DNA of 64,000 nt from Candidatus Marinacidobacterales bacterium (GCA_965237955.1 OZ250169.1:6334766-6398765); one strand, 5' to 3'. Positions 39,425 to 58,950 are shown, counted from the stretch's first letter. Numbers and translations: made by a program. Notes: generated by a model from the sequence alone, not told the origin.

Positions 39425-39686
39425 ATAAAAATAGAGGCGACGCCGCTGGTGTTTACGAGAAGTATAAAGATCCATTTTTAGAGAAAATCTCAGGGGCGGA
39501 GTCTAAGGAGCTTCTTATCAGAGGCGAAGATGTTCAGGTGCTTAACGGTTTTTCCAGTAAGGCAAAAGCGGAGGCGTATCTTAAATCTGATTTCTTTGAA
39601 AAAGATATTGTTAGAGAGCTTACTCCTCTTCTTGAGGCTCCACCAGAAATTAGAGTTTACGAAGCAATGTAGCACCGGAGGATGAC

Positions 39687-40596: not shown

Positions 40597-41187
40597 ATGG
40601 CCGCGCGCAAGTCCACCAGAGTGAACCGCAAATACAAGACGAAGTATCGCGTGACCAACTGGCCGGAGTATGAGCGTGGTCTCAAGAGCCGTGGCGACAT
40701 CACGGTCTGGTTCAGCCAAGAGGCGCGCGAAGCCTGGACGCCACCGCGGAACGGCCGTCGCGGTGGCCAGCCGCGCTACTCGAATCTGGCAATCGTGACG
40801 GCTAAGACGTTGCGCATGGTCTTTCACCTTCCGCTCCGACAGACCGAGGGATTCCTCGACTCGTTGTTGCGGTTGATGGAGCTCGACCTGAAAGCACCGG
40901 ACCACACCACGCTGTCGCGGCGGAACAAAGACGTCGACGTGCCTCGTCCACCTTGTCCCACCAGAGCGCACGCTGGCGCGCTCCATCTGATTGTCGACTC
41001 GAAAGGACTCAAAATCTTGGGTGCCGGTGAGTGGCACGCCCATAGGCACAGGAGCTCGAAGGTTCGACAATGGCGGAAGCTGCACGTCGGGGTGGATGAC
41101 GATGGCTTCATCGTGGCGGCGAAGCTCACGAAGAGCAGCGAGGACGATCCGTCCACTGTCCCCCTGTCTGCTCGAACAGGTCGATGA
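40597..41187 (+). pseudogene. IS903-like transposase, N-terminal part
   Basis: YKTKYRVTNWPEYERGLKSRGDITVWF...HLIVDSKGLKILGAGEW...KLHVGVDDDGFIVAAKLT. An extra frameshift precedes LLEQVDDLAPVS. Confidence 0.75.
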
Positions 41188-41215: not shown

Positions 41216-42091
41216 CTAAGCAACTCGCTTCTCTTTCAGGAGTGTGCGTTCGAATTCGATCGGGCTGATGTTGCCGAGAGTCGAGTGGCGCCGCGTCGGG
41301 TTGTAGAAGTTGGCGATGTAGTCGACGGTGGCCCAGCGCGCTTGAGCGCGAGTAGGAAGAACCAGTCGATAGAGAGCCTCGGTCTTTAGCGTGCCGAAGA
41401 AGCTCTCGACAACGGCGTTATCCCAGCAGTCACCTTTGCCGCTCATGCTGCACTCGATTCCGTGGCGTCGCAAGAACTCTCGATACTCTCGGCTCGCGTA
41501 CTGCACACCACGATCCGAATGGTGAATCATTCCGCGCGGCGGTCTTCGATAACGCACGGCCATTTGAAGCGCGGAGATAGCGAGGTCTGTCCGAAGGTGA
41601 CTCGCCGTCGCCCAACCGATCACACGTCTCGAGAATAGGTCGATGACCACGGCCAAGTACAACCAGCCTTCCCACGTGCGGATGTAGGTAATGTCCGCGG
41701 CCCAGGTTTCGTTGGGTGTCTTGGGAAAGAACTGCCGCTGCACGAGATTGGGAGCCACGGGTCGCAAATGCGAAGAATCCGTCGTCTTCCGAAAACGTTT
41801 CGGGAGACGTGCGCACAGCCCGCTTTCTCTCATCAAACGAGCCACGCGCCGACGTCCAACGGACTCGCCATCTGCTCGGAGCTCGTCGACCATGCGAGGG
41901 CTCCCGTACACCTCACGGTTTGCCCGGAAGGACGATACGACTTTCGCAGACAAGCGTCGGTCTTCGAGCGCGCGACGACTCGGTTTCCGCTTCAGCCACG
42001 CGTAGAAACCGCTTCGCGATACTTCGAGTTGACGGCACATCCACGAGACATTGAACTCGAGGCGTTGAGCAACGATCGCCGCAAACTTCAT
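41216..42091 (-). CDS. IS3-family transposase OrfB (DDE/rve)
   Basis: 291 aa. ...WAADITYIRTWEGWLYLAVVIDLFSRRVIGW...HHSDRGVQYAS...DNAVVESFFGTLKTE, the classic IS3 DDE. Confidence 0.9.
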   Translation of the reverse strand: MKFAAIVAQRLEFNVSWMCRQLEVSRSGFYAWLKRKPSRRALEDRRLSAKVVSSFRANREVYGSPRMVDELRADGESVGRRRVARLMRESGLCARLPKRFRKTTDSSHLRPVAPNLVQRQFFPKTPNETWAADITYIRTWEGWLYLAVVIDLFSRRVIGWATASHLRTDLAISALQMAVRYRRPPRGMIHHSDRGVQYASREYREFLRRHGIECSMSGKGDCWDNAVVESFFGTLKTEALYRLVLPTRAQARWATVDYIANFYNPTRRHSTLGNISPIEFERTLLKEKRVA

Positions 42092-42399
42092 TTCTTCACG
42101 CTCGCGAAGTACGCCGCCGTTTTTTTTAGGAAATCTCGCTCCATCCGAAGATCGCGCACTTCTTTTCGTAGGCTTCGCAGCTCTTCAAGTTCTTCGCTTG
42201 TCAGCGTGCCAGGCCCGCCCTCACCACGGTCGATTCTGTCCTGTCTCACCCAAGCATACAGAGACGTCTCCGTCACATCGATATCCCGCGCTAGCTCGCT
42301 CACCGGCTTACCCGTCTCGCGCACCAGGCGAACCGCCTCGGCTCTGAACTCCTTCGTGAATTGACGACGCTTCTTTTTCTCTGCCATTTGAACACCCAT
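42088..42399 (-). CDS. IS3-family transposase OrfA (HTH)
   Basis: MAEKKKRRQFTKEFRAEAVRLV...LRMERDFLKKTAAYFA. ATGA overlap with orfB. Confidence 0.88.
   Translation of the reverse strand: MGVQMAEKKKRRQFTKEFRAEAVRLVRETGKPVSELARDIDVTETSLYAWVRQDRIDRGEGGPGTLTSEELEELRSLRKEVRDLRMERDFLKKTAAYFASVKK
42120..42127 (-). other. Programmed -1 frameshift site (A AAA AAA) of the IS3 orfAB
   Basis: Coding strand reads TTC CTA AAA AAA ACG. The -1 frame reads KKNGGVLREREEMKFAAIV in frame with orfB. Confidence 0.7.
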
Positions 42400-42418: not shown

Positions 42419-42850
42419 GTGTCCACTGAAGCGAAGCAAGTCCATGACTCTCCGATCCGACGTTTCACAGCCGATGGGGCCTACGACACGCGGTCGGTGT
42501 ATGAGCTGCTCGGTGAGGTCGGCACCGCGAACATCAAGATCGTGATCCCACCTCGACGAGGGGCGGTGCCTTTGGATAGCGCCGAGGGCACGTGGGGGCG
42601 GCGGAACGCAACCCTCGAGACGATTCGCAATGTCGGACGCCAAGGCTGGCAGCGGGAGTCACGGTATCGTCGACAGGGCGGACAGGGCGCCGTCGAGAAT
42701 CTTTTCTTCGGGTACACGCGCACGCTCGGAAACAGCCTTCGCGCGCGCGGCTACGAATCGCAGAAGCGGGAGGCAAGGATCGGGTGCAACGTATTGAACC
42801 GGATGGCTAAGCTGGGCAAGACTGAGTGCCACGCGATCGTTGGGGAGTAA
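42419..42850 (+). pseudogene. IS903-like transposase, C-terminal part
   Basis: ...KQVHDSPIRRFTADGAYDTRSVYELL...NATLETIRNVGRQGWQRESRYRRQG..VENLFFGYTRTLGNSLRARGYESQKREARIGCNVLNRM. Confidence 0.75.
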
Positions 42851-42965
42851 GTTGAGCCGCCAAAAGGTCCCGTGTCCGCCCCGAACGGATTCATGCACCA
42901 ACGCCATGCGGGATCCGATTAGCTTGCAGCCCGTCGGCCGACGCCGATTATTCCGAATGTGAACT

Positions 42966-43961
42966 TCAGCTAATACGAATCCGCGTTCCCATGCCTCGCT
43001 CTTCGGCAAGCTGTACGGCCAGGTGTCCGGACACGAGATCCTGGAAGGCCAGACCTGTTGCGTCGAATAGCGTGATCTCCTCGGCGTTTCTGCGGCCCGG
43101 CTTCCGGCCGGCTAGGATCTCTCCCAGCGTTGCCGGGATGTCCTCGGGGCGCAAGAGGCCCAGGGATACGGGATGTTGTGTTTCCCCGATAGTAGTGGCC
43201 TGGACCACGTCGTCAACCACCAGCGTCGCCCGCTGAAACAGACGGGCTTCGATCTCTACTTTTCCACGAGTGTCCGTTCCAAAGGCGCTCACGTGCATCC
43301 CAGGCTCGATCCAATCGTCAAAAAGAACGGGCTGTTTTCCCGGTGTCGCCGTCACCACCACGTCCGCGCCCTGGACAGCTTCCTGGGGACTCCGTGAAAT
43401 TCGCACCTCCACTCTCTGTGTTCGAAGAGTTTTGGCGAATCGCTCGGAGTTCGCCGGCACGACGTCAAAGGCGCGGATTTCTCTAATGGGACGGACATAA
43501 CACAGGGCTTCGGCCTGCCCCGTCCCCTGTGTGCCGCACCCCAGAATCGCCGCGACCTGTGCATCTTCCCGTGCCAAGTGCCGAGCAGCCAGTGCTCCAA
43601 CCGCAGCAGTGCGAACTGTAGTGATATGGTTGCCGTCCATAAAGGCGGTCGGCAAACCGGAACGTGGGTCGAACATCACCGTTGTTGACTGGTGTGCGGT
43701 GCGTCCCTGGTTCGGGTTGTCAAGCCAGTAGCCACCAGCCTTCAAGCCGATAACTTGTTCATCCATCAGATACCCGGACTTGATTCCAAAAATCCCGCGG
43801 TGTTCCTCGACGGATTCGCGCACCACCGGGTAGGCCACCGTCCGGCGATTTGCGAAGGCCACGAATGCTCTCTCGATGGCTGGGACGACGGTTTCCAGCG
43901 TGAGGAGGACTTTCAACTCGGCCCGGTTCAAGACGAGTATTTCTACACCTGGATTTTCCAT
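42966..43961 (-). CDS. Ornithine cyclodeaminase/mu-crystallin family protein
   Basis: 331 aa. ...GIKSGYLMDEQVIGLKAGGYW..., ITTVRTAAVGALAARHLA, ILGCGTQGTGQAEAL Rossmann motif. Confidence 0.87.
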   Translation of the reverse strand: MENPGVEILVLNRAELKVLLTLETVVPAIERAFVAFANRRTVAYPVVRESVEEHRGIFGIKSGYLMDEQVIGLKAGGYWLDNPNQGRTAHQSTTVMFDPRSGLPTAFMDGNHITTVRTAAVGALAARHLAREDAQVAAILGCGTQGTGQAEALCYVRPIREIRAFDVVPANSERFAKTLRTQRVEVRISRSPQEAVQGADVVVTATPGKQPVLFDDWIEPGMHVSAFGTDTRGKVEIEARLFQRATLVVDDVVQATTIGETQHPVSLGLLRPEDIPATLGEILAGRKPGRRNAEEITLFDATGLAFQDLVSGHLAVQLAEERGMGTRIRIS

Positions 43962-44407
43962 GGAAATATTATATATCGACCAGAAGATGATCCTCGATCA
44001 GGTGAAGGCTCGCCTCGACCACTCTGATGACAGGGAGCTCGAGCGCATCGCCCAGGGACTCCCGGGCCTGATCACGGCGGTGGAGGAGGAACTGTACCAG
44101 GTTGGGTCGCAGGCCCCTTTCGTGTCAAAACCTACTCTAAGAGCTCGGAGCATGCGTTTTTCCAAAGAGAACAGCGACTCGCGACTCCGCCGGCATGATC
44201 GCGCGGTGCACACCTTGCTCCCACGGCGATTCGATGAGCTACGCCATGATCCTCAGATCCTCAGGAAGCGAGGGAGACGCGAACCAGTTTGTCATCAACG
44301 AGTTCCGCGCAATCCGCTACCTCGTGGCGTTCCCGGGTACGCGTCGTCCAAGCGAGCTTGCGCGCCGTTAGAGTAGGTTTTCGTTTCAAAGGGGCCTGTG
44401 ACCCGAG

Positions 44408-44772
44408 ATGCCCGCCCATCACAACCTCGAGGCCTATCTGGATGCCTACCTGAACGCCGCGGGCATCCGCGGTGCGAAGAAAACGCCGCTCTTCTGGAGC
44501 ACTCTTGGAAGGACGAAAAAACTCACCACAAACCCGATGGCGCGTGTCGACGTCTATCGCATGGTTCGGCGGGGAGCTCGCGATGCCGACATTCAGACGT
44601 CCATCGGCTGCCACTCGTTTCGGGCCACCGGCATCACGGCGTACTTAAAGAATGGCGCCGCCTCGAGCTTGCCCAGCAGATGGCGGCGTATGTTTCCGCA
44701 CGCACTACCGGGCTCTACGATCGGCGCGACGAGGAAATCACCCTCGATGAGGTGGAACGGATTACGATTTGA
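44408..44772 (+). pseudogene. Tyrosine recombinase (phage-integrase family) C-terminal relic, frameshifted
   Basis: MPAHHNLEAYLDAYLNAAGI...IGCHSFRATGITAYLKNG, then a shift near 44654-44660 to RLELAQQMAAYVSARTTGLYDRRDEEITLDEVERITI*. Degenerate upstream codons with stops extend back to about 44250. Confidence 0.7.
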
Positions 44773-45117
44773 TAAGAACAACTATAATGCATTGTTGTTG
44801 CCTCTCCTCTCCGTCCACCAAAGACCTCGCCACGTTTATACGGATATCCGGCAGGCGCTTGAAGCATATCAGTCTGTGCTCTATCTTTGTTTCGCTCCAA
44901 GACGTTGACTCTTGGGCGGATAACGCCCGTGAATTTCGACTCGTCTACTGAGTATCTAGCGACTCCCACACGGATATCCTATACTCTTCTCGTACACATC
45001 TAGTTATTCAGTCTCGAAGAAACTCTCTCAAGAACGAATTGTCGAAAGCGCAACGATGCTTGAGATCCCATCCCGAGCTCATTTCGATGGCGCTTTGCCC
45101 CACGAGAACTCAGCTGT

Positions 45118-45223
45118 ATAACCGAGCACTGGAGCAGTCGGCCCGGCAGGCCGTCTGCTTCACTGGATAAAAACGGGTATGCTCGGGCTCACGGCGCCGG
45201 GCCGCAGCTCAGCGCTACGTTAT
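45118..45223 (+). repeat. attC-like imperfect palindrome A (106 bp)
   Basis: ATAACCGAGCACTGGAGCAGTCGGCCCGGC ... GCCGGGCCGCAGCTCAGCGCTACGTTAT. Arms pair with bulged T and G on the 5' arm. Confidence 0.65.
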
Positions 45224-45982
45224 TTGGATGCCTTCAACAGCAGTGGCAACTGTATCGAAGCAGGAAGCGGCCACGGAAATCACGACCGTTACAGCGCGCC
45301 CTCTGTGCCGCGTATTGAACTATGAATAGTCTCAAAGCGACCTTCCGCCGCGTGTGGATCACTGCCGGCCAGAGTGAACTGTGGAACTGCAACAGTACTT
45401 ACTGTGCCGTGCCCTACGATTACCTCCCCACGGTAGACGGCGCCACTGACGATCTTGCGTGGCTCGACCGCGTCAGCCCAGGACTTCGGCAGACCGTGGA
45501 CGGTACCTGCACGCTAGACAGCGAGGAGAACCAAATCGCGCACCTGGACGACATCGTCGCGAAGGCACGTGGTCTTGGATTAAGCCTTCCTGAACCCTTT
45601 CAGCGTTTTATGACGATGGTGACTTACAGCAAAAGGTCCCGACGTCCACCGCTTGCTTTTTGGAGTTGTCGAGGGACTTCATACCGATCCGGGAGGCTGA
45701 CGGGCATTTCCTCCTGCGTTTCCTCAACGACTCTAAAGCTGCGTCATGTGGTATCTGTGTATCGGGCCCAAGGAGTCGACTGCCGTCATTGCATCGTATT
45801 ACTTCTTCGAGCCCGACTATTTCGACGCGATGGAATATGAGGACATCGAGCATGAGGATCTCGTGTCGAAAGCATTTTTCTGTGCTGGCACGTTTACGGA
45901 GTTCTTATACCGATTCTGGGTTGAGGGAGGTGCCCCCACCATAGTTGAAGGTTCGAGGTGGTGGCGGCTCCTGACACATGGT

Positions 45983-47272
45983 TTACCCGACTTTGGCGTG
46001 CTTGTCGAGCGCTTGATTCTCAGTGACCTCCGCTAACTTCGCTTCGAGGATCGGTAGCGATTGGTATCCAATGATACGACGGAAATTTTTCTCCGTGGCG
46101 AGCAGAGCCGAAGCGGCCCATCTCAGAACCATCTTGCCATTGCGCCAGCGGGTGACGCGACGGGTACGACCTCGCGCACCGCTGAAGTACGACTCGATGA
46201 TGTTCGTCGATCCAAGGCAGCGTTTCAGAGATGCGGGGAGGTCGAGCTCGTTGATGGTGAACATCTCGTCGAGCCCCTCCCGGATGCTCTCCGCCGCCGA
46301 GGGGTAGTCGTCCTCGAGCCACTTCGCCTGTTGCTCCAACCGCGCTTTGCCCTTCTTTGCTGGGAGCTGCCAGGCCGAACGCAGGCTCGCTTGCACTTGC
46401 GGCTTCAGCTCCTGCGGCAGATAACCGAGCACATTGCGCTCCTTGTGCTTCCTGCAACGCTGGACCTTGTTGTGGGTACCGAACACAGCGTCGACGGCGA
46501 GCCGTAGCGCCTTGGAGCCATCGATCACGAACAGCCGACACCGCTCTGGGCTCAGGCCTCGTTCGACCAGGTCCTCCAGCAGCGCCTTGCACACTATCTG
46601 GTTCTCCGATGCTCCATCCCGAAGCCCCAGAACATGCTTGTATCCCTCTGTATCTACGCCGATTGCCGCCAGCGCGTGGTGCTCGCCGAAGCGAATCCCG
46701 TCCAGGTACACGACCGCGATCTCCAGCTCGTCCAGCGGACGCTCCATCAGCCCCTGCAACTGCTCCGCGCTTGCTTCCACGAACTCACGGCTCACCTCGC
46801 TCTTGCTAACCCCTACCGTCTCCGCCATCTCGGGAAGAACCGACGCGTACTTGCGCGTCGACACACCCAGCATCAGGATTTCCCAGATGCGTTGGCTCAG
46901 CCGAGACGAGTTGTTCACCGCTTCGTAGGCAGGAATCGCAACCTCCCCTCCCTCTGCCTTTCCCTTACGCCGCAGACGTGGCCGGCTCACTCTCAACTTC
47001 CGCTCCGCAAGGCTTACTACGCCACCCTGCCGGCCGTGCCAGCGAACATCGCTACCCTTCTTCCCCGGGTGTTTCTCCCCAGCCACACTTTGGGCTGACA
47101 GATCCAAGACCGCTTCGATCGTCGCTCGGCCAGCAACGTCGATCACTTCGTCGATCGCTATCTCGGTTCGCTCAATCGCATCCAAGAACGGCAACAGAGC
47201 TTGCCCCTTCGAGCTCAGTATCTCTCGAAGCTTCTTCCTGTTCTTCGCATCGATGATTTGGTAATTTGACAT
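45983..47272 (-). CDS. IS256-family (mutator-type) transposase
   Basis: MSNYQIIDAKNRKKL...VVYLDGIRFGEHHALAAIGVDTEGYKHVLGL...FVIDGSKALRLAV...QRCRKHKERNVL. The first 80 codons of the 509-aa track ORF are read-through from the ISL3 end. Confidence 0.88.
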   Translation of the reverse strand: MSNYQIIDAKNRKKLREILSSKGQALLPFLDAIERTEIAIDEVIDVAGRATIEAVLDLSAQSVAGEKHPGKKGSDVRWHGRQGGVVSLAERKLRVSRPRLRRKGKAEGGEVAIPAYEAVNNSSRLSQRIWEILMLGVSTRKYASVLPEMAETVGVSKSEVSREFVEASAEQLQGLMERPLDELEIAVVYLDGIRFGEHHALAAIGVDTEGYKHVLGLRDGASENQIVCKALLEDLVERGLSPERCRLFVIDGSKALRLAVDAVFGTHNKVQRCRKHKERNVLGYLPQELKPQVQASLRSAWQLPAKKGKARLEQQAKWLEDDYPSAAESIREGLDEMFTINELDLPASLKRCLGSTNIIESYFSGARGRTRRVTRWRNGKMVLRWAASALLATEKNFRRIIGYQSLPILEAKLAEVTENQALDKHAKVG

Positions 47273-47295
47273 CGTGGTGGCTCCTTTCTTTTTCC

Positions 47296-49014
47296 GGTTC
47301 TCCTGTCGTTTCGGGGGATCTGATTTGTGTTGGAGGGCATGGCCTATGGACGCTGCCGCGATTGTGGAAAACGCCGGAAACTCCGGGCGAGAGAGGCGTT
47401 TAGGGAAAGGTTGTGAGCACGTACAAACGTGGAGCGGCGTTTTCCACAATCGCTTGGAAAACGCTTCGCGTTTCCCACGAGCGCCCACAGGCCCCTCCTG
47501 ATATATATACAAGAAAGATTAATTCATATGGAATAAGGAAGGGGGGGCTCGATTAGTGGAGGCTATGGAAAACGCCCTTCCAGGCTTCGAAGAGAACTCA
47601 GTCGTGAGCAAGGTCTGAACGACCAGAACCGTGGGGGCGTTTCCCACAGCCTCGTCTCCCGCTGAGGGGCAGTGGCATTTGGTGAGGCCCGTGGGTTGAG
47701 AGGGTAAGCCATGTGTAGATGCGCATCGGCGAGAACGCTAGAATCTTTTTTTCCGAAAGAGAAAAGAGCGTTCCCGCGATGCGCGTTACTACGTTAGTCA
47801 ACAAGCTCATCGGATTGCAAGGCCTGTGGGTCCGAGGTTTCCACTTCCAGGCGGACAAAGCCAGAGTGGTGGTGGATGTAGTACCACGGAGGAGGAAGCC
47901 TCTGTGCGGGATTTGCGGACGAAAGGTCCGCAAGAACAAAGATCGCTACAATCGCTACTGGCGGCACTTGGACCTGTTCGGAGTCCGGACCTATCTTCGC
48001 TACTCGATCCGACGAGTAGTATGTCGGCGGTGTGGAGTGGTCAGAGAAAAGGTGCCTTGGGCCGACAAGGGAAGCCGCTTTACCAAAAGCTTCGAACAAG
48101 AGGTAGCGTGGCTGGCACAGAGGACGGACGTCAGCGCCGTAGCGAACTATTTCCGAGTGACGTGGCGTTCGGTGCGACGGATCATCCAGCGAGTGGTTGC
48201 CGAGCAGCGGGATGAGCGGCGCGAGCTCGATGGATTGCGGGTGATTGGGATGGACGAGATCAGCTACCGCAAACGCCACAAGTACTTAACAGTGGTAATA
48301 GACCATCTCAGCGGCCGGGTCGTCTGGGCGGGAAAGGAGCGCAAGGCCAAGACGCTGCTGCGGTTTTTCCGCAAGCTCGGACCACAAAGAGCCGCGGAGC
48401 TCGAAGCGGTCAGCATGGACATGTGGGAGCCGTACATAACTGTCGTCGGCAAAAAGGCTCCTCAGGCACGGGTGATCTTTGACCGCTTCCACATCGTCAA
48501 GCATCTGAACGAGGCCGTGGATAAGACCCGGCGCGAGCTGGTGCGCGAGCTCAAAGGGACTGCCCGGCGCAACCTCAAGAACACCAAGTTTCCCCTTCTC
48601 AAGGCCAAACACAACCGCAGCGCGAAAGACAAACGGGTGCTCCGCGAGCAGGTGCGAGCTAATCGTCGCCTCTACCGCGCCATGCTTCTGCGCGACGACT
48701 TCATGGACCTCTACACCTACAAAACCGAGACATGGGCCAAGAAGTTTCTCCGAGGATGGCTGCGGCGCGCTATGAGCTCGAGGATAGAGCCCGTCAAACG
48801 CGCGGCGAAGATGATCCGCAGCCACTTCGATGGCGTCATCGCGTGGGTCACGTGGAGACTCAGCAACGGCCGACTCGAAGGAATGAACAACAAAATCCGG
48901 CTGCTGAGCCACCGCAGCTTTGGACTCCACTCTGCCGAAGCTCTCATCAGTCTCGTCTACCTAAACTGTGGCGGTCTCACCCTCGAGAGGATCCACTGAA
49001 ATGGCAGGAGAGGC
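47296..49014 (+). mobile_element. ISL3-family insertion sequence, copy 3 (1719 bp), nested in IS256
   Basis: Same termini as copies 1 and 2. Flanking 8-mers CTTTTTCC (47288-47295) and CTTATTCC (49015-49022) match 7 of 8. Inserted 24 bp upstream of the IS256 transposase ATG. Confidence 0.88.
47719..48999 (+). CDS. ISL3-family transposase (copy 3)
   Basis: 426 aa, identical to copy 2 except for the zinc-finger Cys. Confidence 0.92.
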   Translation: MRIGENARIFFSEREKSVPAMRVTTLVNKLIGLQGLWVRGFHFQADKARVVVDVVPRRRKPLCGICGRKVRKNKDRYNRYWRHLDLFGVRTYLRYSIRRVVCRRCGVVREKVPWADKGSRFTKSFEQEVAWLAQRTDVSAVANYFRVTWRSVRRIIQRVVAEQRDERRELDGLRVIGMDEISYRKRHKYLTVVIDHLSGRVVWAGKERKAKTLLRFFRKLGPQRAAELEAVSMDMWEPYITVVGKKAPQARVIFDRFHIVKHLNEAVDKTRRELVRELKGTARRNLKNTKFPLLKAKHNRSAKDKRVLREQVRANRRLYRAMLLRDDFMDLYTYKTETWAKKFLRGWLRRAMSSRIEPVKRAAKMIRSHFDGVIAWVTWRLSNGRLEGMNNKIRLLSHRSFGLHSAEALISLVYLNCGGLTLERIH

Positions 49015-49307
49015 CTTATTCCTTCACAGCCGGATTCTATCGAACCCGGCCTTAGGAGCCGCCACTCCTAACCTTCAACTATCTCAGGGGCATCTCCGGG
49101 TTGAGAATACGATCTGGTATTCGCTTCATGACGGATTGCAGTTGACACCCATTCAGAAGGAATACCGGAGCCAAATCTCGAGAAAGTTGTACACGCGATG
49201 ACCAGGTGTTCCCGAGCGTCCGGCGTTCTGGAAACGCCATCGCCCCGTCTATGCTCGAGAAGTCGGATGCGCAGAGTCGTCGCCGACCACTGGGCGTCGG
49301 GCACCAA

Positions 49308-49384
49308 ATAACAGCACGTGCAGCCGTCGGGCGCCAACATGACTTCTTCGATTGTCGGCGTCCGCAGCTGACGTGTTACGTTAT
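49308..49384 (+). repeat. attC-like imperfect palindrome E (77 bp)
   Basis: ATAACAGCACGTGCAGCCGTCGGGCGCC ... GGCGTCCGCAGCTGACGTGTTACGTTAT. Arms pair with bulged T and G. About 105 bp after the SUKH-like stop. Confidence 0.65.
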
Positions 49385-49463
49385 TCGGACTAGCTACTGT
49401 GAGATAAAGTGACGCGGGAGAATCGGTGTCGAAGCCGTTTCGAGCCAGTTTGAAGTCGAGCCT

Positions 49464-49793
49464 ATGGCGAACATCTTCCATGTCATTGGAACATTTCACA
49501 TCACCGGTCGCACTGTGTTCTTTGTCTACGGGGACATAGTACAGGGTGTAGCACGGGCTGGAATGTTTGCGCGTGTGAGCCGTAGATCCGCTATGCCCAT
49601 GGAACTGCCAGTTGATGCGGTCGAGTTCGTTGACCTAGCAAACGGTGAGTTCCACCTGGCACTGGGCTTTAAGTACGAGAACGAGGAGCAACTCGACCGC
49701 TGGAAGCGTCTCAACATCGGTGACGAAGACCTAGAGTTGATCGATGAGAAATCGCGTTTCGGTGAGCCGAGGTCTGAAGGTGTGTCGCCGTAG
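49464..49793 (+). CDS. Cassette ORF, hypothetical (109 aa)
   Basis: MANIFHVIGTFHITGRTVFFVYGDIVQG...; bounded by attC-like sites E and B; no family recognised. Confidence 0.45.
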   Translation: MANIFHVIGTFHITGRTVFFVYGDIVQGVARAGMFARVSRRSAMPMELPVDAVEFVDLANGEFHLALGFKYENEEQLDRWKRLNIGDEDLELIDEKSRFGEPRSEGVSP

Positions 49794-49825
49794 CGACCAC
49801 CGAATGCGCACCATGCGGGAGCCGC

Positions 49826-49928
49826 ATAACATCCGCTTGAGCAGACGGCCGGCACTCAGGATTCGACTGATGAATCAGCTTTACGGTATCTTCGACTAAA
49901 GCCGGCCGCAGCTCAGCGGCGACGTTAG
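49826..49928 (+). repeat. attC-like imperfect palindrome B (103 bp)
   Basis: ATAACATCCGCTTGAGCAGACGGCCGGC ... GCCGGCCGCAGCTCAGCGGCGACGTTAG. Bulged A and T on the 5' arm. Confidence 0.65.
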
Positions 49929-49949
49929 CTGGGTCTTCGGGGTCAGGCG

Positions 49950-50258
49950 GTGGGGATTAAGATGCTAACTCAGGTGTGTTTGGATTATTTGCTCCTTCTT
50001 GTGGACGGCGATGATTCGGTGATCGATAGCCGATACTGTGAGAAAACGCTGGGTCCCCTTCTTGACGATATGCAGGAAGCAACGGAATCCGAAAAGCAGG
50101 CCTTAGCCGCCGCGGCACGTGAAAGGTTGGCATGGCTACTTCGTGAGCCAGATGAACACGGATATACCCCACGGAAGCTCGTCTCTCAAGAAACACGCGA
50201 TTTCTTAACCGCCCTCGGTGAGGGAACCGTCTTGCAGGCGCGCGAAGGGACCAGCTAA
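49950..50258 (+). CDS. Cassette ORF, hypothetical (102 aa)
   Basis: ...MLTQVCLDYLLLLVDGDDSVIDSRYCEKTLGPLLDDMQEATESEKQAL.... The stop TAA is embedded in the CTAAC of the next attC-like site. Confidence 0.45.
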   Translation: MGIKMLTQVCLDYLLLLVDGDDSVIDSRYCEKTLGPLLDDMQEATESEKQALAAAARERLAWLLREPDEHGYTPRKLVSQETRDFLTALGEGTVLQAREGTS

Positions 50259-50313
50259 CCCTCGCTGGCTGGCTCGACGGCGAGCGCCGCTCGCCGCTGA
50301 GCTCTAACGTTCG
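50255..50313 (+). repeat. attC-like imperfect palindrome C (59 bp, short form)
   Basis: CTAACCCTCGCTGGCTGGCTCGACGGCGAGCG C CGCTCGCCGCTGAGCTCTAACGTTCG. The 3' arm is nearly identical to site D. Pairing of the outer boxes is weaker (TAAC vs GTTC). Confidence 0.5.
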
Positions 50314-50327
50314 CCGGACTAGGGCGT

Positions 50328-50895
50328 ATGAGCACCAAGGCAGAGCTAAACTCCATACTCTTTATCGCAATCGTGCTCGCGGTCTCTTGTCAGGATCAAT
50401 CTAATCAAACCCCCTCAACGTCAACCGCGCGACGCACGCCCTCAGGCTTCCTCATCGTCCGCCTGGCCCAACGCCCTCGCAGGAGAGTGGCGCGTGGTTG
50501 AGTGGTTTCCAGCGCGCATCGGAACGTGGTCCTCCGAGGAGGGCGAGCGGGTCGTCGGTCAGGTCGCGCGGTTGTATGCGAATGACCTGGTGGTTCCGGC
50601 GTACGGGTGCGAGCGCCCGCACTTTGCCGTCTCCGACACCGGCGAGTTCTGGGGGCAGCTCGAGAGGTGCCAAACTGACGAGCCGCCTGCCAGTTGTCGG
50701 GACATCTGGTGGGCCCGTGATTCTATGCTCAAGTGTGCGGGCTCGGAGAACCGCCCATCACCGCTAGCTCAGGTGGCCGTCAGTTGTCCCGACGGAGAGG
50801 GGCTCGGGTTCAGCGTTGCGCAGCTCTCGGACGCGCGGGCCGTTCTCGGTTTGCCGGATGGCCGAGGTTTCCTCTGCCTGGAGTTGATGGAGTAG
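50328..50895 (+). pseudogene. Putative lipoprotein cassette ORF with a probable frameshift near 50440
   Basis: ATG 50328: MSTKAELNSILFIAIVLAVSCQDQSNQTPSTSTA (lipobox-like) stops at 50501. The +1 frame continues ...PQASSSSAWPNALAGEWRVVEWFPARIGTW...LCLELME* (track ORF 50494-50895). Confidence 0.4.
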
Positions 50896-50998
50896 CGGCT
50901 GGGGCGAGTCGTGACGACCGCGTCGATGCGGGCGTTACTTGGCTTGATGTTAGCGATGTGCTGCAGTGTGAACCGCCCCGGGTTTTCCGGAGACTGTT

Positions 50999-51916
50999 TT
51001 AGTTGAGTCTCGCCATCTCTAGCGAGCCTTCCTGCGACCGATAGTAGTTCATCTCGTACTCGACGGGGGAGACATTTCCGATCGGCTCCAAGAGTCGTTG
51101 CGTGTTGTACCAATGGACCCACTCGAGGGTGGCGAACTCAACGTCTTCGAGACCACGCCAGGGCCCACGTCGACGGATCACCTCGGTCTTGTAGAGGCCG
51201 ATGATGGATTCAGCCAAAGCGTTATCGTAAGAGTCGCCTCGGCTGCCGACGGACGGCTCAATGCCCGCCTCGGCGAGCCGCTCGGTGTAACGGATCGAGA
51301 CGTACTGCACGCCGCGATCGCTGTGATGCACCAATTGATCTTCTGGGTTTAGTCGGCGCTCGTGCAACGCCTGCTCCAACGCATCGAGAGCGATGCCGGC
51401 AGTCAACGATGTCGTCGCTCGCCAACCGACGCTGAGTCGAGCGAAGACGTCGATGACGAAGGCGACATACACGAAGCCGCGCCACGTGGCGATGTAGGTC
51501 AGGTCCGAAACCCAGAGCTCGTTCGGGCGTGTGGCGTTGAAGTCGCCCTCCACGAGGTCCATCGGGCGAGCGCCGCTCGAATCCGGCTTCGTCGTCTTGA
51601 ATCGACGTCCACGGACCGCGCCCTGGAGACCCATTTCACGCATCAGACGGGCCACCGTGCATCGAGCCACGTCGCGGCCCTCACGGCACAGCTGACGCCA
51701 GACCTTGCGCACGCCATACACGTCAAAGTTCTCTTGCCGTACACGACGAATCTCGCCGCGGAGTTGGACGTCGCGCTTCGCTCTCGCTGGCAGGCGGCTT
51801 GGGTCCTTCTCTCGCGCTTTCTGCTCGTAATAGGTCGACGGGGCGATCGGAAGCATCCGGCAGATCGGCGCGTCCCCGTAATTTTCACGGTTCGCGTCCA
51901 CGAACAACACATTCAC
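50999..51916 (-). CDS. IS3-family transposase OrfB (DDE/rve)
   Basis: 305 aa. ...LWVSDLTYIATWRGFVYVAFVIDVFARLSVGW...HHSDRGVQYVS...DNALAESIIGLYKTE. Confidence 0.9.
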   Translation of the reverse strand: MNVLFVDANRENYGDAPICRMLPIAPSTYYEQKAREKDPSRLPARAKRDVQLRGEIRRVRQENFDVYGVRKVWRQLCREGRDVARCTVARLMREMGLQGAVRGRRFKTTKPDSSGARPMDLVEGDFNATRPNELWVSDLTYIATWRGFVYVAFVIDVFARLSVGWRATTSLTAGIALDALEQALHERRLNPEDQLVHHSDRGVQYVSIRYTERLAEAGIEPSVGSRGDSYDNALAESIIGLYKTEVIRRRGPWRGLEDVEFATLEWVHWYNTQRLLEPIGNVSPVEYEMNYYRSQEGSLEMARLN

Positions 51917-52233
51917 CTCGGTCGGCGGTCGAGCTCCGCCTGGGCGAAAAACGCCGACGCCTTGCGAAGGATCTCGTTCGCCCGCTTTAGCTCACGGTTC
52001 TCTCGCTCAAGCTCCTTCAGCCGCTGACGCTCGTCCGTCGTCAGTCCCGCTCGTTTCCCAGCATCACGCTCTGCTCGCCGCACCCACGTGCGTAGCGTTT
52101 CCCGCGTACAGTCAATCTTCGACGCAATCGATGAGATCGCTGACCACTGAGATTCGTGCTGAGCCTGCTGGTCGAAAACCATCCGCACTGCGCGCTCTTT
52201 TACCTCCGGTGAATACCTGCTTCGTCTTGTCAT
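51913..52233 (-). CDS. IS3-family transposase OrfA (HTH)
   Basis: MTRRSRYSPEVKERAVRMVFDQ...LERENRELKRANEILRKASAFFAQAE. Overlaps orfB. Confidence 0.88.
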   Translation of the reverse strand: MTRRSRYSPEVKERAVRMVFDQQAQHESQWSAISSIASKIDCTRETLRTWVRRAERDAGKRAGLTTDERQRLKELERENRELKRANEILRKASAFFAQAELDRRPR

Positions 52234-52284
52234 GACTCCATCCTCTCAAGAGTTGGAGTCTCCGGAAAACCCGGGGCGGTTCAT

Positions 52285-52485
52285 GAGAAGTTTCTAGCGG
52301 AGTCGACGCGGCCGAACGGTTGGACGATAACCAATGTCTTCGTCATCGGTTGGGACGGCACCGGCAATCCTTTTGGCATCCATCGTCAAAGCGGTCGCAT
52401 CTTAGTGGAGGACCACAACTTTGGAGGTGTCCACGAACTGGCCCCGTCGCTGGCGGTGTTCTTGCTTCAGGGGCTCAACATGTAA
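52285..52485 (+). pseudogene. SMI1/KNR4 (SUKH)-like C-terminal segment downstream of IS3 no. 2
   Basis: Own translation: EKFLAESTRPNGWTITNVFVIGWDGTGNPFGIHRQSGRILVEDHNFGGVHELAPSLAVFLLQGLNM*. The IG.DG.GN...DH....LAPS...FL pattern is recalled from SUKH-1 proteins. Confidence 0.45.
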
Positions 52486-52494
52486 GGGAAACGT

Positions 52495-52585
52495 CTAACA
52501 TCAGCTGCAACGGACGAGCGGCGATATGTTGTTTAGAATGAAAAGACTTACGGCGAGCGCCGCTCGCCGCTGAGCTTTTCGTTAT
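52495..52585 (+). repeat. attC-like imperfect palindrome D (91 bp)
   Basis: CTAACATCAGCTGCAACGGACGAGCGGCG ... CGCCGCTCGCCGCTGAGCTTTTCGTTAT. GTCTAAC fits RYYYAAC. Bulged A and G on the 5' arm. Confidence 0.65.
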
Positions 52586-52671
52586 ACTCGCCTCGAATTC
52601 AAAGAAGATCTGCCAGAGAGTCGGCGGCGAAGTCCTGAAATCGATCGATGGCAACTACTTAGGGCCAGTGA

Positions 52672-53139
52672 TTACTTGCGATGTTTTAGAAGTCGCTCGT
52701 CAAAGCCGAAAGCCGTGTCCTTGTCGATGCGGACGCCGGCGAACTCCGGATGCGCCGGGTTCAGGAGCACGTTGTGGTCGTCGACGACGACCGCGGAGGG
52801 AACTCTCAACATGAGGGTTTGCCGGCTTGCGGCCCAGCGTGTTCCGATCTCGGCAAGTGCCGCCGGAGCAGGGAATGTCTTCCAATCCTCTGGCAAGGAC
52901 TCGGAATCGATCGTACGCGAAGACGCCGCATCGGGAACATCGATGAACACCAGGCGGAGGTCGGATGGTTGGAGATTCGCGTCGACGTGAACGAGCAACT
53001 CCACGGTGGCCAGGGCAGGGCTGCTCGCGGTGTACAAGATCGAGGTCCCTTTCTGATTCCAGCGTGCACCGTACATTCGGGCGCCGGTACCGCTGAGGTC
53101 TTGCGCGTACGCGGCCTTTGATATGCGATAGAGGATCAA
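52672..53139 (-). CDS. RES-domain toxin (MbcT/ParT-like)
   Basis: 155 aa. (TTG)ILYRISKAAYAQDLSGTGARMYGARWNQKGTSILYTASSPALATVELLVH. R, E and S residues sit in the expected order. Confidence 0.85.
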   Translation of the reverse strand: MILYRISKAAYAQDLSGTGARMYGARWNQKGTSILYTASSPALATVELLVHVDANLQPSDLRLVFIDVPDAASSRTIDSESLPEDWKTFPAPAALAEIGTRWAASRQTLMLRVPSAVVVDDHNVLLNPAHPEFAGVRIDKDTAFGFDERLLKHRK

Positions 53140-53567
53140 GACACGAGGCCGTGCTCGACGCGACCCAGCTCGTCAACTACCAGATCGATCCCGAGCTTGG
53201 ACGCCACGAGGTCCATCGGCTTGCGATTGCCGAGCGCCACATTCGACCGCTGCATCCAAGCGAGGAACCTATCCTTGTCCTCAAAGACGTCGACGCCACG
53301 AACGACGACGCGCGCGATCTCCAGAAGATGATCCGAGACAGCCCGGCTTAGGCGGGTCGAACGTGAGTACCGCTGGATGGTGCGTTCCGTGATCGGGAGC
53401 AAGCGCGCCATCTGGGCCGTTGAGAGCTCCAAAAAGTTTGCCAGCTCCAGCAAGGACGCTTTGGTAAGCCCCTTCTCGCCGAGGTCGACGAGATCCAGCA
53501 TCGTCTCGAACTTCCCCCGGAACGTTTTAGGACCTCCGAGCAGCTCGAGAACGGCGGCTGGATTCAT
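53136..53567 (-). CDS. Xre-like antitoxin with C-terminal RES-toxin-binding domain (DUF2384/MbcA/ParS-like)
   Basis: MNPAAVLELLGG...LSTAQMARLLPITERTIQRY...VFEDKDRFLAWMQRSNVALGNRKPMDLV...GRVEHG. Stop overlaps the toxin start. Confidence 0.85.
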   Translation of the reverse strand: MNPAAVLELLGGPKTFRGKFETMLDLVDLGEKGLTKASLLELANFLELSTAQMARLLPITERTIQRYSRSTRLSRAVSDHLLEIARVVVRGVDVFEDKDRFLAWMQRSNVALGNRKPMDLVASKLGIDLVVDELGRVEHGLVS

Positions 53568-53821
53568 GTAGATAGCTCCGTCATTTGACGTAATTATACC
53601 GTCACTTGTCGCAAAGATCAAACTGAGGGGCTTTGGCCCGTTCCGGGCCCTCTGAAAGCGCCGCTTTTCGAGCTCTCCTCAGAATCGCATGGAAACATGT
53701 CCATCGTCAAAACTCGTCCGTCCTTGAAATCAGGCACTTACACCGACCCAAGCCTGGGCTAGGAGCTGGTTCTCTGAGATTCCGCCGTGGGAAGGGCAAA
53801 ACCGTGCTGCTCACACAGGCA

Positions 53822-55120
53822 TCATGCAGATTTCCGAGCAGGTTTTCGACGAGGCCCTGTTCTGGTGACACTCCGGACAGCAGGGCCAGCGCGTGAAGAG
53901 TCGCAGCGACGACAACTCGCTGCTTGATTTGCCGCGCTCCTGACCCACTGCGCGGTTTTGCGCTGCTCGGAGAGCCGCTCAAGCACATTCTCCTCTCGGC
54001 CGAAGTACACCTCGTCCGGCGTGCGAGCGCCGAGAACGGCGCGCGGTATCTTTTCATTGTGCTCACGGACGTAGAACGCGACGAGACGCCGCACGGCCAC
54101 CGTGCTGTCGAGCGTGTTTAGGAAAAGCCAACCATGCTTCAATTGTCGCCAGAACGCCTCGATCAATGAGTTCGAGGAGATGATGTCGATCTGCGCGAGC
54201 ACACGACTCAGAGAACCAGAATCCTCTAGAAGCTGGTCGACCTCGCCAAAGTTCTCCGAACCGCCGTCGGTGACAACAAGTACGTTAGCGTTTGCGGCGG
54301 TGCGGGGGAGGTCGCCTGACGCCTCGATGAGCAGCTCCCGCGTGGTCGCCGAGCTCAGGGTGTCGCTCACCCGCCAGGCGAGAATCCTTCGGCTGAAATT
54401 GTGGATGACCGCCTGGAGGTAGATTCGGACGCCGGTCGTCAGCCGGATCACTGTTGTGTCAATTTGCCAATACTCGTTTGGGCGCGTTGCTCTGAGGCCT
54501 TCTTTGGGCTTGGCGGGATGCACCCGCCTTCGGGGACGCCTCCACCCGCGCTCGTGGATCAACTTGTACCAGGTGCTTGCAGACGCGAAGAGCTTGCCAA
54601 GACGCTGCGCGTAAAGCGCTAGATTCTGGACCGCGATGTCGCGATACGTCTCGGACTCGACGAAATCCCTCATCGTCGAGACTTCGTCACGCGTGAGCTG
54701 GCTAGGGAAGGACTTCGGACAGCTCGGCTGGTCGTAGAGCCCGCAGCCTTCCTCCTTGCGCCTCCACGCGTGATAGCGCGCGGACGAGATACCGACAATC
54801 CTGAGGACGGTGTCCAGGACGAGCAGCTTGGACCCCGAGGCAACCGCACGGAGAATCGCCGATTTGCTTGCCCCATCAGGAACGCGATCGCCGTCGAGTT
54901 TGCCTCCGCGGACGTTCAGCAGCCTCACCAGCAATCCGATGATCGCCGCCTGCTGCTTGGCGCGCTGTCGTAGGCGGTCGATGTGGAGTTGGAGGTCTAC
55001 GAGCTGTTGGAGCAGGTCGACCAAACGGACGCACCTCGCCGCGCGCCCACCTGCGTCGCGTGGATGCCGGTATCGGGACGTTCCGGAACAGATACGCGTT
55101 ACCCGTCGCGGCGATGGCAT
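53822..55120 (-). CDS. rve-domain (DDE integrase-core) transposase, IS3/IS481-like
   Basis: ...RPNEYWQIDTTVIRLTTGVRIYLQAVIHNFSRRILAW...VVTDGGSENFG...SNSLIEAFWRQLKHGW. The N-terminal start is uncertain. Confidence 0.75.
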   Translation of the reverse strand: MPSPRRVTRICSGTSRYRHPRDAGGRAARCVRLVDLLQQLVDLQLHIDRLRQRAKQQAAIIGLLVRLLNVRGGKLDGDRVPDGASKSAILRAVASGSKLLVLDTVLRIVGISSARYHAWRRKEEGCGLYDQPSCPKSFPSQLTRDEVSTMRDFVESETYRDIAVQNLALYAQRLGKLFASASTWYKLIHERGWRRPRRRVHPAKPKEGLRATRPNEYWQIDTTVIRLTTGVRIYLQAVIHNFSRRILAWRVSDTLSSATTRELLIEASGDLPRTAANANVLVVTDGGSENFGEVDQLLEDSGSLSRVLAQIDIISSNSLIEAFWRQLKHGWLFLNTLDSTVAVRRLVAFYVREHNEKIPRAVLGARTPDEVYFGREENVLERLSEQRKTAQWVRSAANQAASCRRCDSSRAGPAVRSVTRTGPRRKPARKSA

Positions 55121-55506
55121 CGCGCAGCCTATGGTCGTAGCTCCGGCGCACTCGCTGGGTTCTATTCATACCCAAGAATGACAGGGAGCTATTCCCATGG
55201 CCAGCCGGCCGATAATGGCTGTCTGCAAAGGATCTTGTCGAACGTTCGCTCTCCATCCTCCACAATGATCGTGCGAGGAGCACGGCTTTGTCGGGCACCG
55301 AAGCGTTATCGCCGAGGTAATCGGCATTGTCACGACGAGCGACAGCGGGGCAGATCAGTGTAGCGGCAGCGGATCAGCCGGAGCCTCCTAACAACCGCAT
55401 GCAACGGACGGTCGCCGAGTCATGCTATTTTCCTGTGTTGGCGGGTAGGTGTGCTACCCTCCCACTCTCGAGCTACATCCACACGATGCGCGAAGGGAGG
55501 ACCGCC

Positions 55507-57570: not shown

Positions 57571-57702
57571 GATCACTGCCGCGCCTTCGCCTCCCGCGTG
57601 ACCCGGATTTGCCTCCCACCCCCCCGGTGGCGAGCGAGGCGACCTCCAAGTTTTCTCTTTTCCTTTTGGCGTCAATGGGTTGCCGTGCTACTCAAACAGA
57701 CC

Positions 57703-58179
57703 TTATGGAGATGCACGAGCAGGTTTTCGACGAGCTCGGGTTCTAGCGGACTTCCGCGCCGCGGTTCGTGTACCTGAAGATTGGCAGCGCTGACAACTCG
57801 CTGCTCGATTCACCGCGTTCCTGGCCCGCTGCGCTTTCTTGCGTTGCTCGGAGAGGCGCTCTAACAGGTTCTCCTCGCGGCCGAAGTAGACCTCGTCCGG
57901 CGTACGACCTCCGAGAACGGCGCGCGGGATCTTTTCATTGTGCTCGCGGACGTAGAACGCGACGAGACGCCTCACGGCCACCGTACTGTCGAGGATGTTC
58001 AGGAACAGCCACGCGTGCTTCAATTGTCGCCAAATCGTTCCTGCGATGTCTGATGCGTCTTCCACAGAGAGCTCGAAGACACCCATTGCTCTACTCCCTG
58101 TCTGCAGAACACCGGGATGAGCGGCGGCACGGCGAAGGTGTCGACCGAGACCGCCAACGTTATCTACCCAGTGTCTCAT
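57703..58179 (-). pseudogene. Truncated paralog of the rve transposase (C-terminal about 110 codons)
   Basis: WRQLKHAWLFLNILDSTVAVRRLVAFYVREHNEKIPRAVLGGRTPDEVYFGREE... About 85% nt identity to 53822-54150 by eye. Homology ends near 58030. Confidence 0.7.
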
Positions 58180-58950
58180 GTCTGCCCGAAGGCTCGGTGC
58201 CGTCCGCTCAATCGCGTTGTTATGTGTCCATTCCGTCGTCCCGGAGGAATCGATGCCCTTGCACCCGCTCAGAATGTAAAGACTAAATAGTGACAGGAAA
58301 GATAGTCAGGATACTCAATCCTTTGGCTCTCCGCTGCTTCGAGGACCCCGAGTCGTCCATCCGAACGCGAGAAAAGGCGCACATTGTTGTTGTTTGGGTA
58401 TCCCGAACTCCTTGCCTGTAAAGAGCGCGAACTCATAAGTGGTCCTATCGTCCCACTCGCGGAGTAGATTTCCCAGACTTCGACTAAAGACTCGCGCCTC
58501 CCCATCTGCTATCTGTCCACGCAACCACCTTTGATAAGTCGCGTCAGCTTGTTCCCGAAGGCGCTTGAACGCGAGGTAATCTGACTCATCTTCACGACTC
58601 GCCCAATAAACATCCTCCGCTACCCGATTTGCAAAAACTCATCGTGATGCCTAGCCACAACATGATCAAACGAAGGGCGACCGCAAGTACGGCGATATGG
58701 TTTCTGAGCAGCGCTGGACCGACACGGCACATATCGCGTGCATCACAAGAGAGAAACGCAGACCAGAGCCGTACCGTCCCGATGACAGGCTCACCCCGCA
58801 GTTTGTCGCGGCGAGATTGCGGTAGTCCCGTCAACTCAATCCTGAATTGCCAACCACGGCTTTCGGGGCAGTTCCTGCCGCTTCAACAAAGTACACATAA
58901 CGTACCGATGAGCTGCCGCCGGGCTTCTACCTAGGAAATTCCAGGAAGTC

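Follow-up and report, generated by a model that had tools for sequence, protein, structure and literature searches.

A decaying gene-cassette array, very probably of integron type and without a local integrase, in a marine Vicinamibacteria genome

Introduction

Clusters of attC sites lacking an integron-integrase (CALINs) are a defined and common category, and a stretch of 64,000 nucleotides from a Candidatus Marinacidobacterales bacterium (GCA_965237955.1 OZ250169.1:6334766-6398765; this whole stretch is called the window below) very probably holds one, as a piece of the chromosomal cassette array of an integron in a genome of the Vicinamibacteria (Candidatus Marinacidobacterales-like). Cury et al. 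(2016, PMC4889954) found 279 CALINs, 83% of them holding no more than five attC sites and 95% without an intI pseudogene nearby, and suggested as their origins loss of intI, rearrangement, or insertion at secondary sites; in the same study insertion sequences (IS) were present in a fourth of complete integrons. The array described here resembles these clusters in its small size, in its attC sites, at least two of which lie on the same strand, in the lack of IntI or any recognisable intI pseudogene nearby, in cassette genes that are unknown or orphan rather than resistance genes, and in the presence of IS. It departs from a typical CALIN in a heavy IS load (nested IS256 and ISL3 elements, an IS3 and an IS3/IS481-like element), in one internally deleted attC and two orphan half-sites, in a second, inverted mini-array 5.5 kb away, and in a first site, A, that lies beyond the 4-kb rule by which sites are clustered. 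The term CALIN is used in the sense of IntegronFinder (Cury et al. 2016, PMC4889954; Néron et al. 2022). What is notable in this array is the clean evidence of cassette turnover and the presence of several modes of decay.

Comparison can also be made with the degenerate chromosomal integrons of Xanthomonas, in which intI is inactivated, the arrays are disrupted by IS, and the intI remnant stands beside a conserved chromosomal gene. Here, too, there is a sedentary array that has no functional local integrase and gathers pseudogenes and IS; the difference is that no intI remnant is detectable in the window. Ghaly et al. (2021, PMC8352920) modelled chromosomal attC sites taxon by taxon, among others for Acidobacteria, Deltaproteobacteria and Planctomycetes. 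In likeness to such families, the sites A, B, C and E of the window have homologues in the arrays of Ca. Marinacidobacterales metagenome-assembled genomes (MAGs), but the array mixes at least three attC subfamilies and is not one homogeneous repeat. With the attC sites of class 1 integrons (those of the aadA, aac(6')-Ib, blaVIM-2 and dfrA17 cassettes) our sites have the same hairpin and parts of the arms in common (TAACG...AGC.GCGG and CCGTC.GCT...GTTA), and covariance models recognise the two groups reciprocally. The window's sites differ in their longer loops and in their lengths of 77-119 nt, against mostly 63-78 nt in class 1, and the locus differs from class 1 integrons in being chromosomal and in having no resistance genes, intI1, attI1 or Pc.

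Sites and covariance models

In a first-pass annotation, made by a model from the sequence alone, the region was read as an integron-type cassette array without an integrase. This reading is supported by covariance-model matches, hairpins, related arrays, cassette turnover and the absence of IntI from the window, and we are confident that the region is an array of cassettes with attC sites that has no local integrase. The five palindromes of that annotation can be read from the sequence at 45118-45223, 49308-49384, 49826-49928, 50255-50313 and 52495-52585, and each opens with (A/C)TAAC and closes with CGTTA, or with CGTTC in site D. Its count of five attC sites stands for A, B, C and E, which are intact, and fails for D, an internally deleted site of the E type that falls below the model thresholds; three features, the inverted site F and the half-sites G and H, had been overlooked. 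Taken together, the comparisons show four apparently intact direct sites (A, B, C and E) and one apparently intact inverted site (F). The sites are listed here with the recombination point between the G and the TT of the core (G/TT) and with scores from the models R2 and R3 that are described after the list.

45118 to 45223, plus strand: attC site A, 106 nt; G/TT between 45219 and 45220; R3 34.4 bits, E 3e-6; R2 62.7 bits.
49308 to 49384, plus strand: attC site B, 77 nt; G/TT between 49380 and 49381; R3 28.5 bits, E 9e-5; R2 63.3 bits.
49826 to 49928, plus strand: attC site C, 103 nt; G/TT between 49924 and 49925; R3 42.1 bits, E 4e-8; R2 75.3 bits.
50255 to 50313, plus strand: site D, an E-subfamily attC that is defective; R'', R' and L' kept, 34 nt gone, including L''.
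52495 to 52585, plus strand: attC site E, 91 nt; G/TT between 52581 and 52582; R3 39.7 bits, E 1.5e-7; R2 58.9 bits.
55386 to 55417, plus strand: half-site H, the R''-L'' part of an E-type attC (CTAACAACCGCATGCAACGGACGGTCGCCG); no 3' half present.
58105 to 58223, minus strand: attC site F, inverted, with the window's minus strand as top strand; boundary between 58110 and 58109.
58895 to 58924, minus strand: half-site G, the R'-L' part of an A/C-type attC, inverted (ACATAACGTACCGATGAGCTGCCGCCGGGC on the plus strand); adjoins the IS5 element; read from the sequence.

Three covariance models were used. R1 was trained on sites A, B, C and E of the window itself and is circular as a test, hence R2 and R3; in the 64-kb window it returned, besides its training set, a single new site on the opposite strand, at 58101-58228. 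R2 was trained on 41 sites from other genomes, with the window contributing none. Paired cells make up 92.4% of its alignment and 13 of the 22 pairs show compensatory change, and sliding the partners against each other cuts pairing to 22-44%. Class 1 integron loci with annotated cassette genes were then taken from eight plasmids, and seven of these loci, 91 kb in total, were searched with R2 with filters off. The search gave 19 matches (E <= 0.3), all on the strand expected for minus-encoded cassettes and almost all directly 3' of annotated cassette genes (all six in one locus, L064, and all four in another, L059), and over the same 91 kb no match on the opposite strand reached E <= 0.3. R3 was trained solely on these 19 clinical class 1 attC sites. 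Run over both strands of the 64 kb with filters off, it finds exactly A, B, C, E and F significant (E 4e-8 to 9e-5), and nothing further in the window is better than E 0.38, where D stands, followed by noise. Site F has 37.2 bits with R3 (E 6e-7), 38.9 bits with R2 and 24.9 bits with R1. Chance is excluded because the only significant matches of the three models, over both strands of 64 kb with filters off, are these sites. Rfam, searched at gathering thresholds, reports no attC-like family in the window and finds only the ALIL pseudoknot of an IS3 element.

When the five sites of the direct array are aligned, they have a TAAC start, a CGTT end and a conserved 3' arm in common. The first-pass annotation was right that the 3' arms are conserved between sites: D and E share an exact 27-mer, ACGGCGAGCGCCGCTCGCCGCTGAGCT, and A and C have CCGCAGCTCAGCG in common. 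All of A to F carry the R'' and R' triplets within ..TAAC (..ATAAC in F) and GTT.. ends, and the flanking R and Y positions of the consensus RYYYAAC and G/TTRRRY fit only partly (for example GTTATTT, GTTAGCT and GTTCGCC). Alignment of D with E-like sites shows that the missing 34 nt include the L'' arm (TGCAACGGACGAGCGGCGAT...) and that R'', the loop end, L' and R' remain. It is because of this deletion that D fails all three models, with scores no better than chance (absent from the R1 list; R2 15.5 bits, E 0.16; R3 13.9 bits, E 0.38) and folds atypically. Half-site H scores 15.9 bits with R2 (E 0.14), and the stretch around it folds no better than shuffled sequence (z 0.17); it lies about 70 nt upstream of the probable start of an S9 peptidase gene, where the near-identical relatives described below (L067-L069) have other genes. 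Half-site G agrees with TAACGTN5TGAGCTGCSGCC, the pattern that retrieved attC arrays elsewhere. G and H were considered as the halves of one attC split by an inversion, and this was rejected, H being of the E type and G of the A/C type, with arms that are not complementary. Nor is the missing half of G to be found beyond IS5; a fragment of a DDE transposase stands there, with another copy at 41079-41153.

Hairpin structure

The published layout of a folded attC site has an R box with 5'-AAC-3', an unpaired central spacer (UCS), extrahelical bases (EHBs) near L'' and a variable terminal structure (VTS) (PMC5027507). We folded the sites as single-stranded DNA and computed z-scores against shuffled sequences. 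Folding of the bottom strands, a check proposed with the first-pass annotation, yields one long hairpin for each of A, B, C and E (z -4.05, -4.67, -4.52 and -2.37, respectively; A reaches -28 kcal/mol), in which a TAAC/GTTA stem is followed by an unpaired spacer of 0-4 nt, a stem of 19-25 bp and a loop of 13-34 nt. Site F, folded from the plus strand, gives -28 kcal/mol and z -2.68. A, B, C, E and F each have two or three single-base bulges, and all of these lie on the 3' ('') arm of the bottom strand; in B and E two of them on that arm are spaced by 6 nt. These hairpins agree with the published layout. For A, B and C the bottom strand lies 2.2-2.6 kcal/mol below the top strand. The layout is not found in D, whose minimum-free-energy (MFE) structure leaves the R box unpaired (z -1.7).

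Related arrays in other genomes

The arm pattern TAACGTN{5,6}TGAGCTGCSGCC was scanned over a genome collection and retrieved 51 stretches from Candidatus Marinacidobacterales, other Acidobacteriota, Desulfobacterales, Planctomycetaceae and other MAGs. About half of them have R1 matches, often several on one strand and 0.5-1.3 kb apart, and the R'-L' arm motif also recurs in arrays of Desulfobacterales, Planctomycetaceae and Anaerolineae. In a Desulfobacterales contig (L008) the attC of the first cassette (R1 32.8 bits) adjoins a divergently transcribed IntI, which is in two pieces (TIGR02249 294 + 137 bits, cut-off 265), and in another stretch (L044) a C-terminal IntI remnant heads a four-site array. 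Sites A, B, C and E each have full-length homologues, 75-88% identical and with the loop included, in the arrays of Ca. Marinacidobacterales MAGs. For the E type, metagenomes were scanned with the D/E arm; the scan gave six contigs, every one of which has an E-like site of about 100 nt, mostly in same-strand arrays. The proteins of the window's cassettes were compared with the 51 attC-bearing stretches, and none is shared.

Two further observations concern these searches. In a Ca. Marinacidobacterales MAG (L020) an attC-like match at 2122-2187 (R2 46.5 bits) lies directly upstream of a recombinase gene; this encodes a 288-aa XerC/D-like recombinase in an operon with an IS91 transposase (2323-4388), and two more attC matches lie downstream. 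The recombinase was considered as an IntI and rejected, given its IS91 transposase partner and a score below the IntI cut-off. Separately, a hairpin repeat of about 57 nt in the relatives (L069 8689-8745 and 16024-16080; L067 6318-6374) scores weakly with R3 (14.1 bits) and lies in regions that also contain genes of the IS200/IS605 type (Y1_Tnp), at a distance of about 20 nt to 0.4 kb from the nearest; it is probably the hairpin of a transposon end rather than an attC.

Cassette turnover between near-identical genomes

Syntenic contigs (L067-L070) were obtained by exact-protein look-ups with a flanking ornithine cyclodeaminase-family protein and with the RES toxin of the array. These relatives are 98.2-98.5% identical to the window over 42446-44799 and 99.2-99.3% over 52282-53745, with 90.5% over 45003-45222, which comprises site A and 115 nt upstream of it. 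Homology stops at the GTTA of A (45222; the recombination point lies between 45219 and 45220) and sets in again precisely where the IS3 element ends on the right. Between these points L067-L069 carry their version of A (A'), a cassette of about 280 bp, a full attC of the D/E type (R3 44.8 bits), an intact SMI1_KNR4 gene of 137 aa and then E; the window has instead cassettes 1 to 4a with B, C and D, then IS3, then the last 67 codons of SMI1_KNR4. Gain or loss of cassettes at the G/TT junctions had been proposed as a check of the first-pass reading, and it comes out in its favour, with contents that differ between near-identical genomes and one breakpoint at the core of A.

To judge by these alignments, cassette exchange did happen at site A. 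The second breakpoint was, we infer, erased by a deletion adjacent to IS3; the deletion is proposed because this element lacks a target duplication, and it would have taken out one cassette and one full attC together with half of SMI1_KNR4. The window's variant also occurs in another sample, in a metagenome contig (L001) that is 99.94% identical over 49043-50699. The last 31 nt of that contig (1658-1688, against 50700-50730 of the window) are fully divergent, which may reflect a further variant of the array, a junction with an IS or a chimeric assembly.

Such an exchange would follow the integron mechanism. Each cassette is a small, mostly promoterless unit closed by an attC site, whose bottom strand, once single-stranded, folds into a hairpin of R box with the conserved 5'-AAC-3', unpaired spacer, L box with extrahelical bases and variable loop. 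IntI recognises this hairpin and cuts between A and C, and cassettes can leave as circles and reinsert at G/TT. The exchange at A would have been catalysed by an IntI acting in trans, either encoded elsewhere in the genome of about 8 Mb or since lost.

Cassettes and insertion sequences

The units of the array, and the inverted cassette beyond it, are the following.

45220 to 49380, plus strand: cassette 1, a pseudogene; open reading frame (ORF) from 45322, stop 49201; 981 bp without IS.
49381 to 49924, plus strand: cassette 2, 544 bp; ORF 49464-49793, 109 aa.
49925 to 50309, plus strand: cassette 3, 385 bp; ORF 49950/49962-50258, about 100 aa.
50310 to 52581, plus strand: composite 'cassette 4'; lipoprotein-like ORF(s) 50328-50895, IS3, SMI1_KNR4 remnant 52284-52485.
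52672 to 53139 and 53136 to 53621, minus strand: RES toxin and Xre/MbcA-type antitoxin, respectively; Pfam RES 95.1 bits, Xre_MbcA_ParS_C 54.7 bits.
58110 to 58900, minus strand: inverted cassette between G and F, 791 bp; short ORFs only, no family.

The distances from ORF to site agree with the first-pass annotation, four plus-strand ORFs ending 0-107 nt 5' of a site: the stop of cassette 1 (49201) lies 107 nt 5' of B, that of cassette 2 (49793) 33 nt 5' of C and that of the SMI1_KNR4 remnant (52485) 10 nt 5' of E, and the TAA stop of cassette 3 (50256-50258) falls within the CTAAC of D. The unit spacing of 0.4-0.8 kb given there was too narrow; measured from G/TT to G/TT with IS removed it is 0.39-0.98 kb, with cassette lengths of 981, 544, 385 and 957 bp.

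None of the products of cassettes 1 to 3 has a Pfam family. Cassette 1 has an ORF that is interrupted by an IS and whose frame is broken at least twice, and a SUKH-like identity considered for its protein was dropped, there being no Pfam match even at E <= 1. The cassette-2 protein is an orphan that found only itself among 5.8 billion proteins, so its mobility is not traceable through homologues. Cassette 4 has a frame break near 50500, and its SMI1_KNR4 gene is reduced to the C-terminal 67 codons. The RES-Xre pair is the final unit of the array, in reversed orientation and with no intact attC 3' of it, and it is the sole unit with a recognisable and, as predicted, intact function.

The IS in and around the cassettes are these.

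45926 to 49097, minus strand: IS256-family element; imperfect inverted repeats of 40 nt; splits the ORF of cassette 1.
50969 to 52283, minus strand: IS3-family element; perfect inverted repeats of 27 nt, frameshift pseudoknot (Rfam ALIL 90.2 bits), NCBIfam IS3.
53802 to 55288, minus strand: IS3/IS481-like element with an rve transposase; limits approximate.
58953 to 60039, plus strand: IS5-family element; perfect inverted repeats of 18 nt.

The IS256 element is flanked by an 8-bp target duplication, GGGTTGAG, at 45918-45925 and 49098-49105, and has an ISL3 copy (47283-49014) nested within it, which shares 99.5-99.7% identity with two further copies in the window; no target duplication was found around the IS3 element between D and E (50969-52283). 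The array is decaying, because three IS lie in or beside its cassettes (one of them nested), site D is truncated, there are two half-sites and two ORFs are broken.

The wider window is also rich in IS. Three ISL3 copies (23538-25255, 37706-39437 and 47283-49014) are 99.4-99.7% identical, and more IS lie at 35684-37617 and 41216-42399; the window also has two IS3, one ISAzo13-family, one IS3/IS481-like and one IS5 element. The ISAzo13-family element is frameshifted and has a copy of 99.2-99.3% identity in a MAG of Ca. Marinacidobacterales, an order of the class Vicinamibacteria, and the IS3/IS481-like element has 82% identity with a copy in another MAG of that group. These shared IS and the recurring attC subfamilies suggest a host of that group. 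This very high IS load points to a recent expansion of IS. At 41079-41153 and 60037-60111 there is a 75-nt repeat, 93% identical, which reads as part of a DDE transposase (..VDDDGFIVAAKLTKSSEDDPS..); both copies stand beside IS ends and are remnants of a further IS. The second, inverted mini-array (F, G and the 791-bp cassette) is bordered by a truncated IS3/IS481-like remnant (57682-58032) and by IS5.

Just past that IS5 lies a class A beta-lactamase-family gene (60162-61070, minus strand) with an S-x-x-K motif, which scores 238.9 bits with Pfam Beta-lactamase2 and 144 bits with NCBIfam bla_class_A, below the cut-off of 200. It was considered as a cassette and rejected, as no attC follows it. 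Far from the array, 3187-4455 and 4543-5808 are neighbours of about 1.27 kb, 84% identical, that represent a gene of about 445 aa duplicated in tandem.

The integrase question and alternative explanations

The earlier statement that the window holds no IntI is borne out, as tblastn with IntI1 and an environmental IntI gave nothing below E 0.8 in 64 kb; at least 5000 plasmids have an annotated IntI1 with 100% identity to the IntI1 probe. The head of a complete integron is thus not seen, with no intI in the window and no sigma-70-type promoter consensus upstream of A. One explanation would be that the cluster never had an integrase of its own and that an IntI encoded elsewhere inserted the cassettes at a secondary chromosomal site, which is among the CALIN routes of Cury et al. 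(PMC4889954). In the four genomes examined the array does set in abruptly behind a pseudogene, and no remnant of attI or intI can be recognised (attI being not recognisable by sequence). We consider this origin improbable: within 15 kb there are an inverted site, both half-sites and six copies or remnants of IS, which speak for rearrangement and fragmentation, and a related genome (L044) has the same attC subfamilies together with an IntI remnant.

The region between the upstream genes and site A holds two features that bear on the matter.

44405 to 44772, plus strand: remnant of a tyrosine recombinase catalytic domain; pseudogene with a frameshift near 44660 and H>Y in ...HxSxRTT....
44800 to 45002, no strand: non-coding insertion of 203 nt, absent from the relatives of 98-99% identity.

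It is very improbable that this adjacent recombinase, before it became a pseudogene, served the array as the non-IntI integrase of an integron-like system. It lies directly upstream of A in the same orientation, a layout resembling that of L044, in which the integrase reads towards the cassettes, and the same pseudogene heads the array in L067-L069. Against this, the remnant matches only the generic catalytic domain (Pfam PF00589, 28.7 bits); as a decayed IntI it was rejected at 21.7 bits with TIGR02249 (cut-off 265), XerD and XerA scoring higher. Between the beta-hairpin and HxxR the remnant is some 30 aa shorter than IntI and lacks the IntI-specific insertion, and BLASTP shows no similarity to the C-terminal half of IntI. 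No homologue stands beside the attC arrays of the 51 stretches, and the neighbourhoods of three family members gave no attC match. The family itself is widespread, with more than 3000 homologues that are often 5'-truncated fragments in unrelated contexts; its best-matching members (P0002-P0121) are mostly 121-215 aa long, and one fragment of 176 aa is identical on 24 contigs.

About 170 nt of the 203-nt insertion resemble L044 4534-4700, a segment within a cassette of that acidobacterial array, just upstream of a methyltransferase ORF. In the insertion and the sequence upstream of A there is no Rfam match and, over the scanned interval 44700-45400, no promoter or terminator consensus.

Least probable of all is that the palindromes are repeats of the repetitive extragenic palindrome (REP) or miniature inverted-repeat transposable element (MITE) kind, or terminators resembling attC, with ordinary genes as the small ORFs: they are indeed GC-rich imperfect palindromes immediately 3' of ORFs, and three stretches (L009, L022 and L029) show a single match within 8 kb, but their bulges are strand-asymmetric, their AAC and GTT ends are conserved exactly at the cassette limits, the clinical-only model picks these sites and nothing else in 64 kb, matches are confined to 45.1-58.9 kb with none in the remaining 50 kb or so, there is no T-run and no terminator consensus in the interval scanned, which holds A, the matches in other genomes are clustered, same-strand and cassette-spaced with one beside IntI, and cassette content differs at G/TT between near-identical genomes.

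Several points nevertheless weigh against the reading of the region as a CALIN with turnover at A. B and C are 442 bp apart and C and E 2567 bp, within the 4-kb clustering rule, but A and B, with an IS inserted between them, are 4084 bp apart, and the default rule would leave A a singleton and a CALIN of B, C and E. D fails the models, and the RES-Xre unit is without a bounding 3' attC in every genome examined. R3 is a surrogate for the IntegronFinder attC model, a check proposed with the first-pass annotation, with a column layout inherited from R2 and R1 and a shortened E-value calibration. The strand preference of the hairpins is not uniform: in E the top-strand MFE is slightly below that of the bottom strand (-20.5 against -20.1, or -18.7, kcal/mol), because an internal palindrome gives the top strand another fold, and in F the two strands tie on the exact site (-26.3 against -26.2 kcal/mol). 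The region of A is only 90.5% identical to A' but its flanks are 98.5% identical, and the breakpoint at A could stem from homologous recombination between similar attC sites.

Implications

As a CALIN, the array would be a well-documented example from a marine Vicinamibacteria lineage, with attC subfamilies that are common to several large MAGs. It shows within one locus several routes by which an array erodes: insertion of IS, an IS-adjacent deletion that fuses cassettes, loss of an attC arm, and half-sites left as orphans. For annotation it advises caution, as the 4-kb default drops site A, and where D is missed cassettes 3 and 4 are reported as one. The understanding of integrons is unchanged by the finding.

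More tentatively, the array may not be dead, and an IntI elsewhere in the genome may still shuffle its cassettes in trans, a possibility that we regard as rather unlikely. If this were true, the variant of the window and L001 and that of L067-L069 would be snapshots of continuing exchange at attC A while IS dismantle the array, and the locus would let one follow, in nature and at sequence resolution, the making and upkeep of a CALIN in a phylum that has been little studied.

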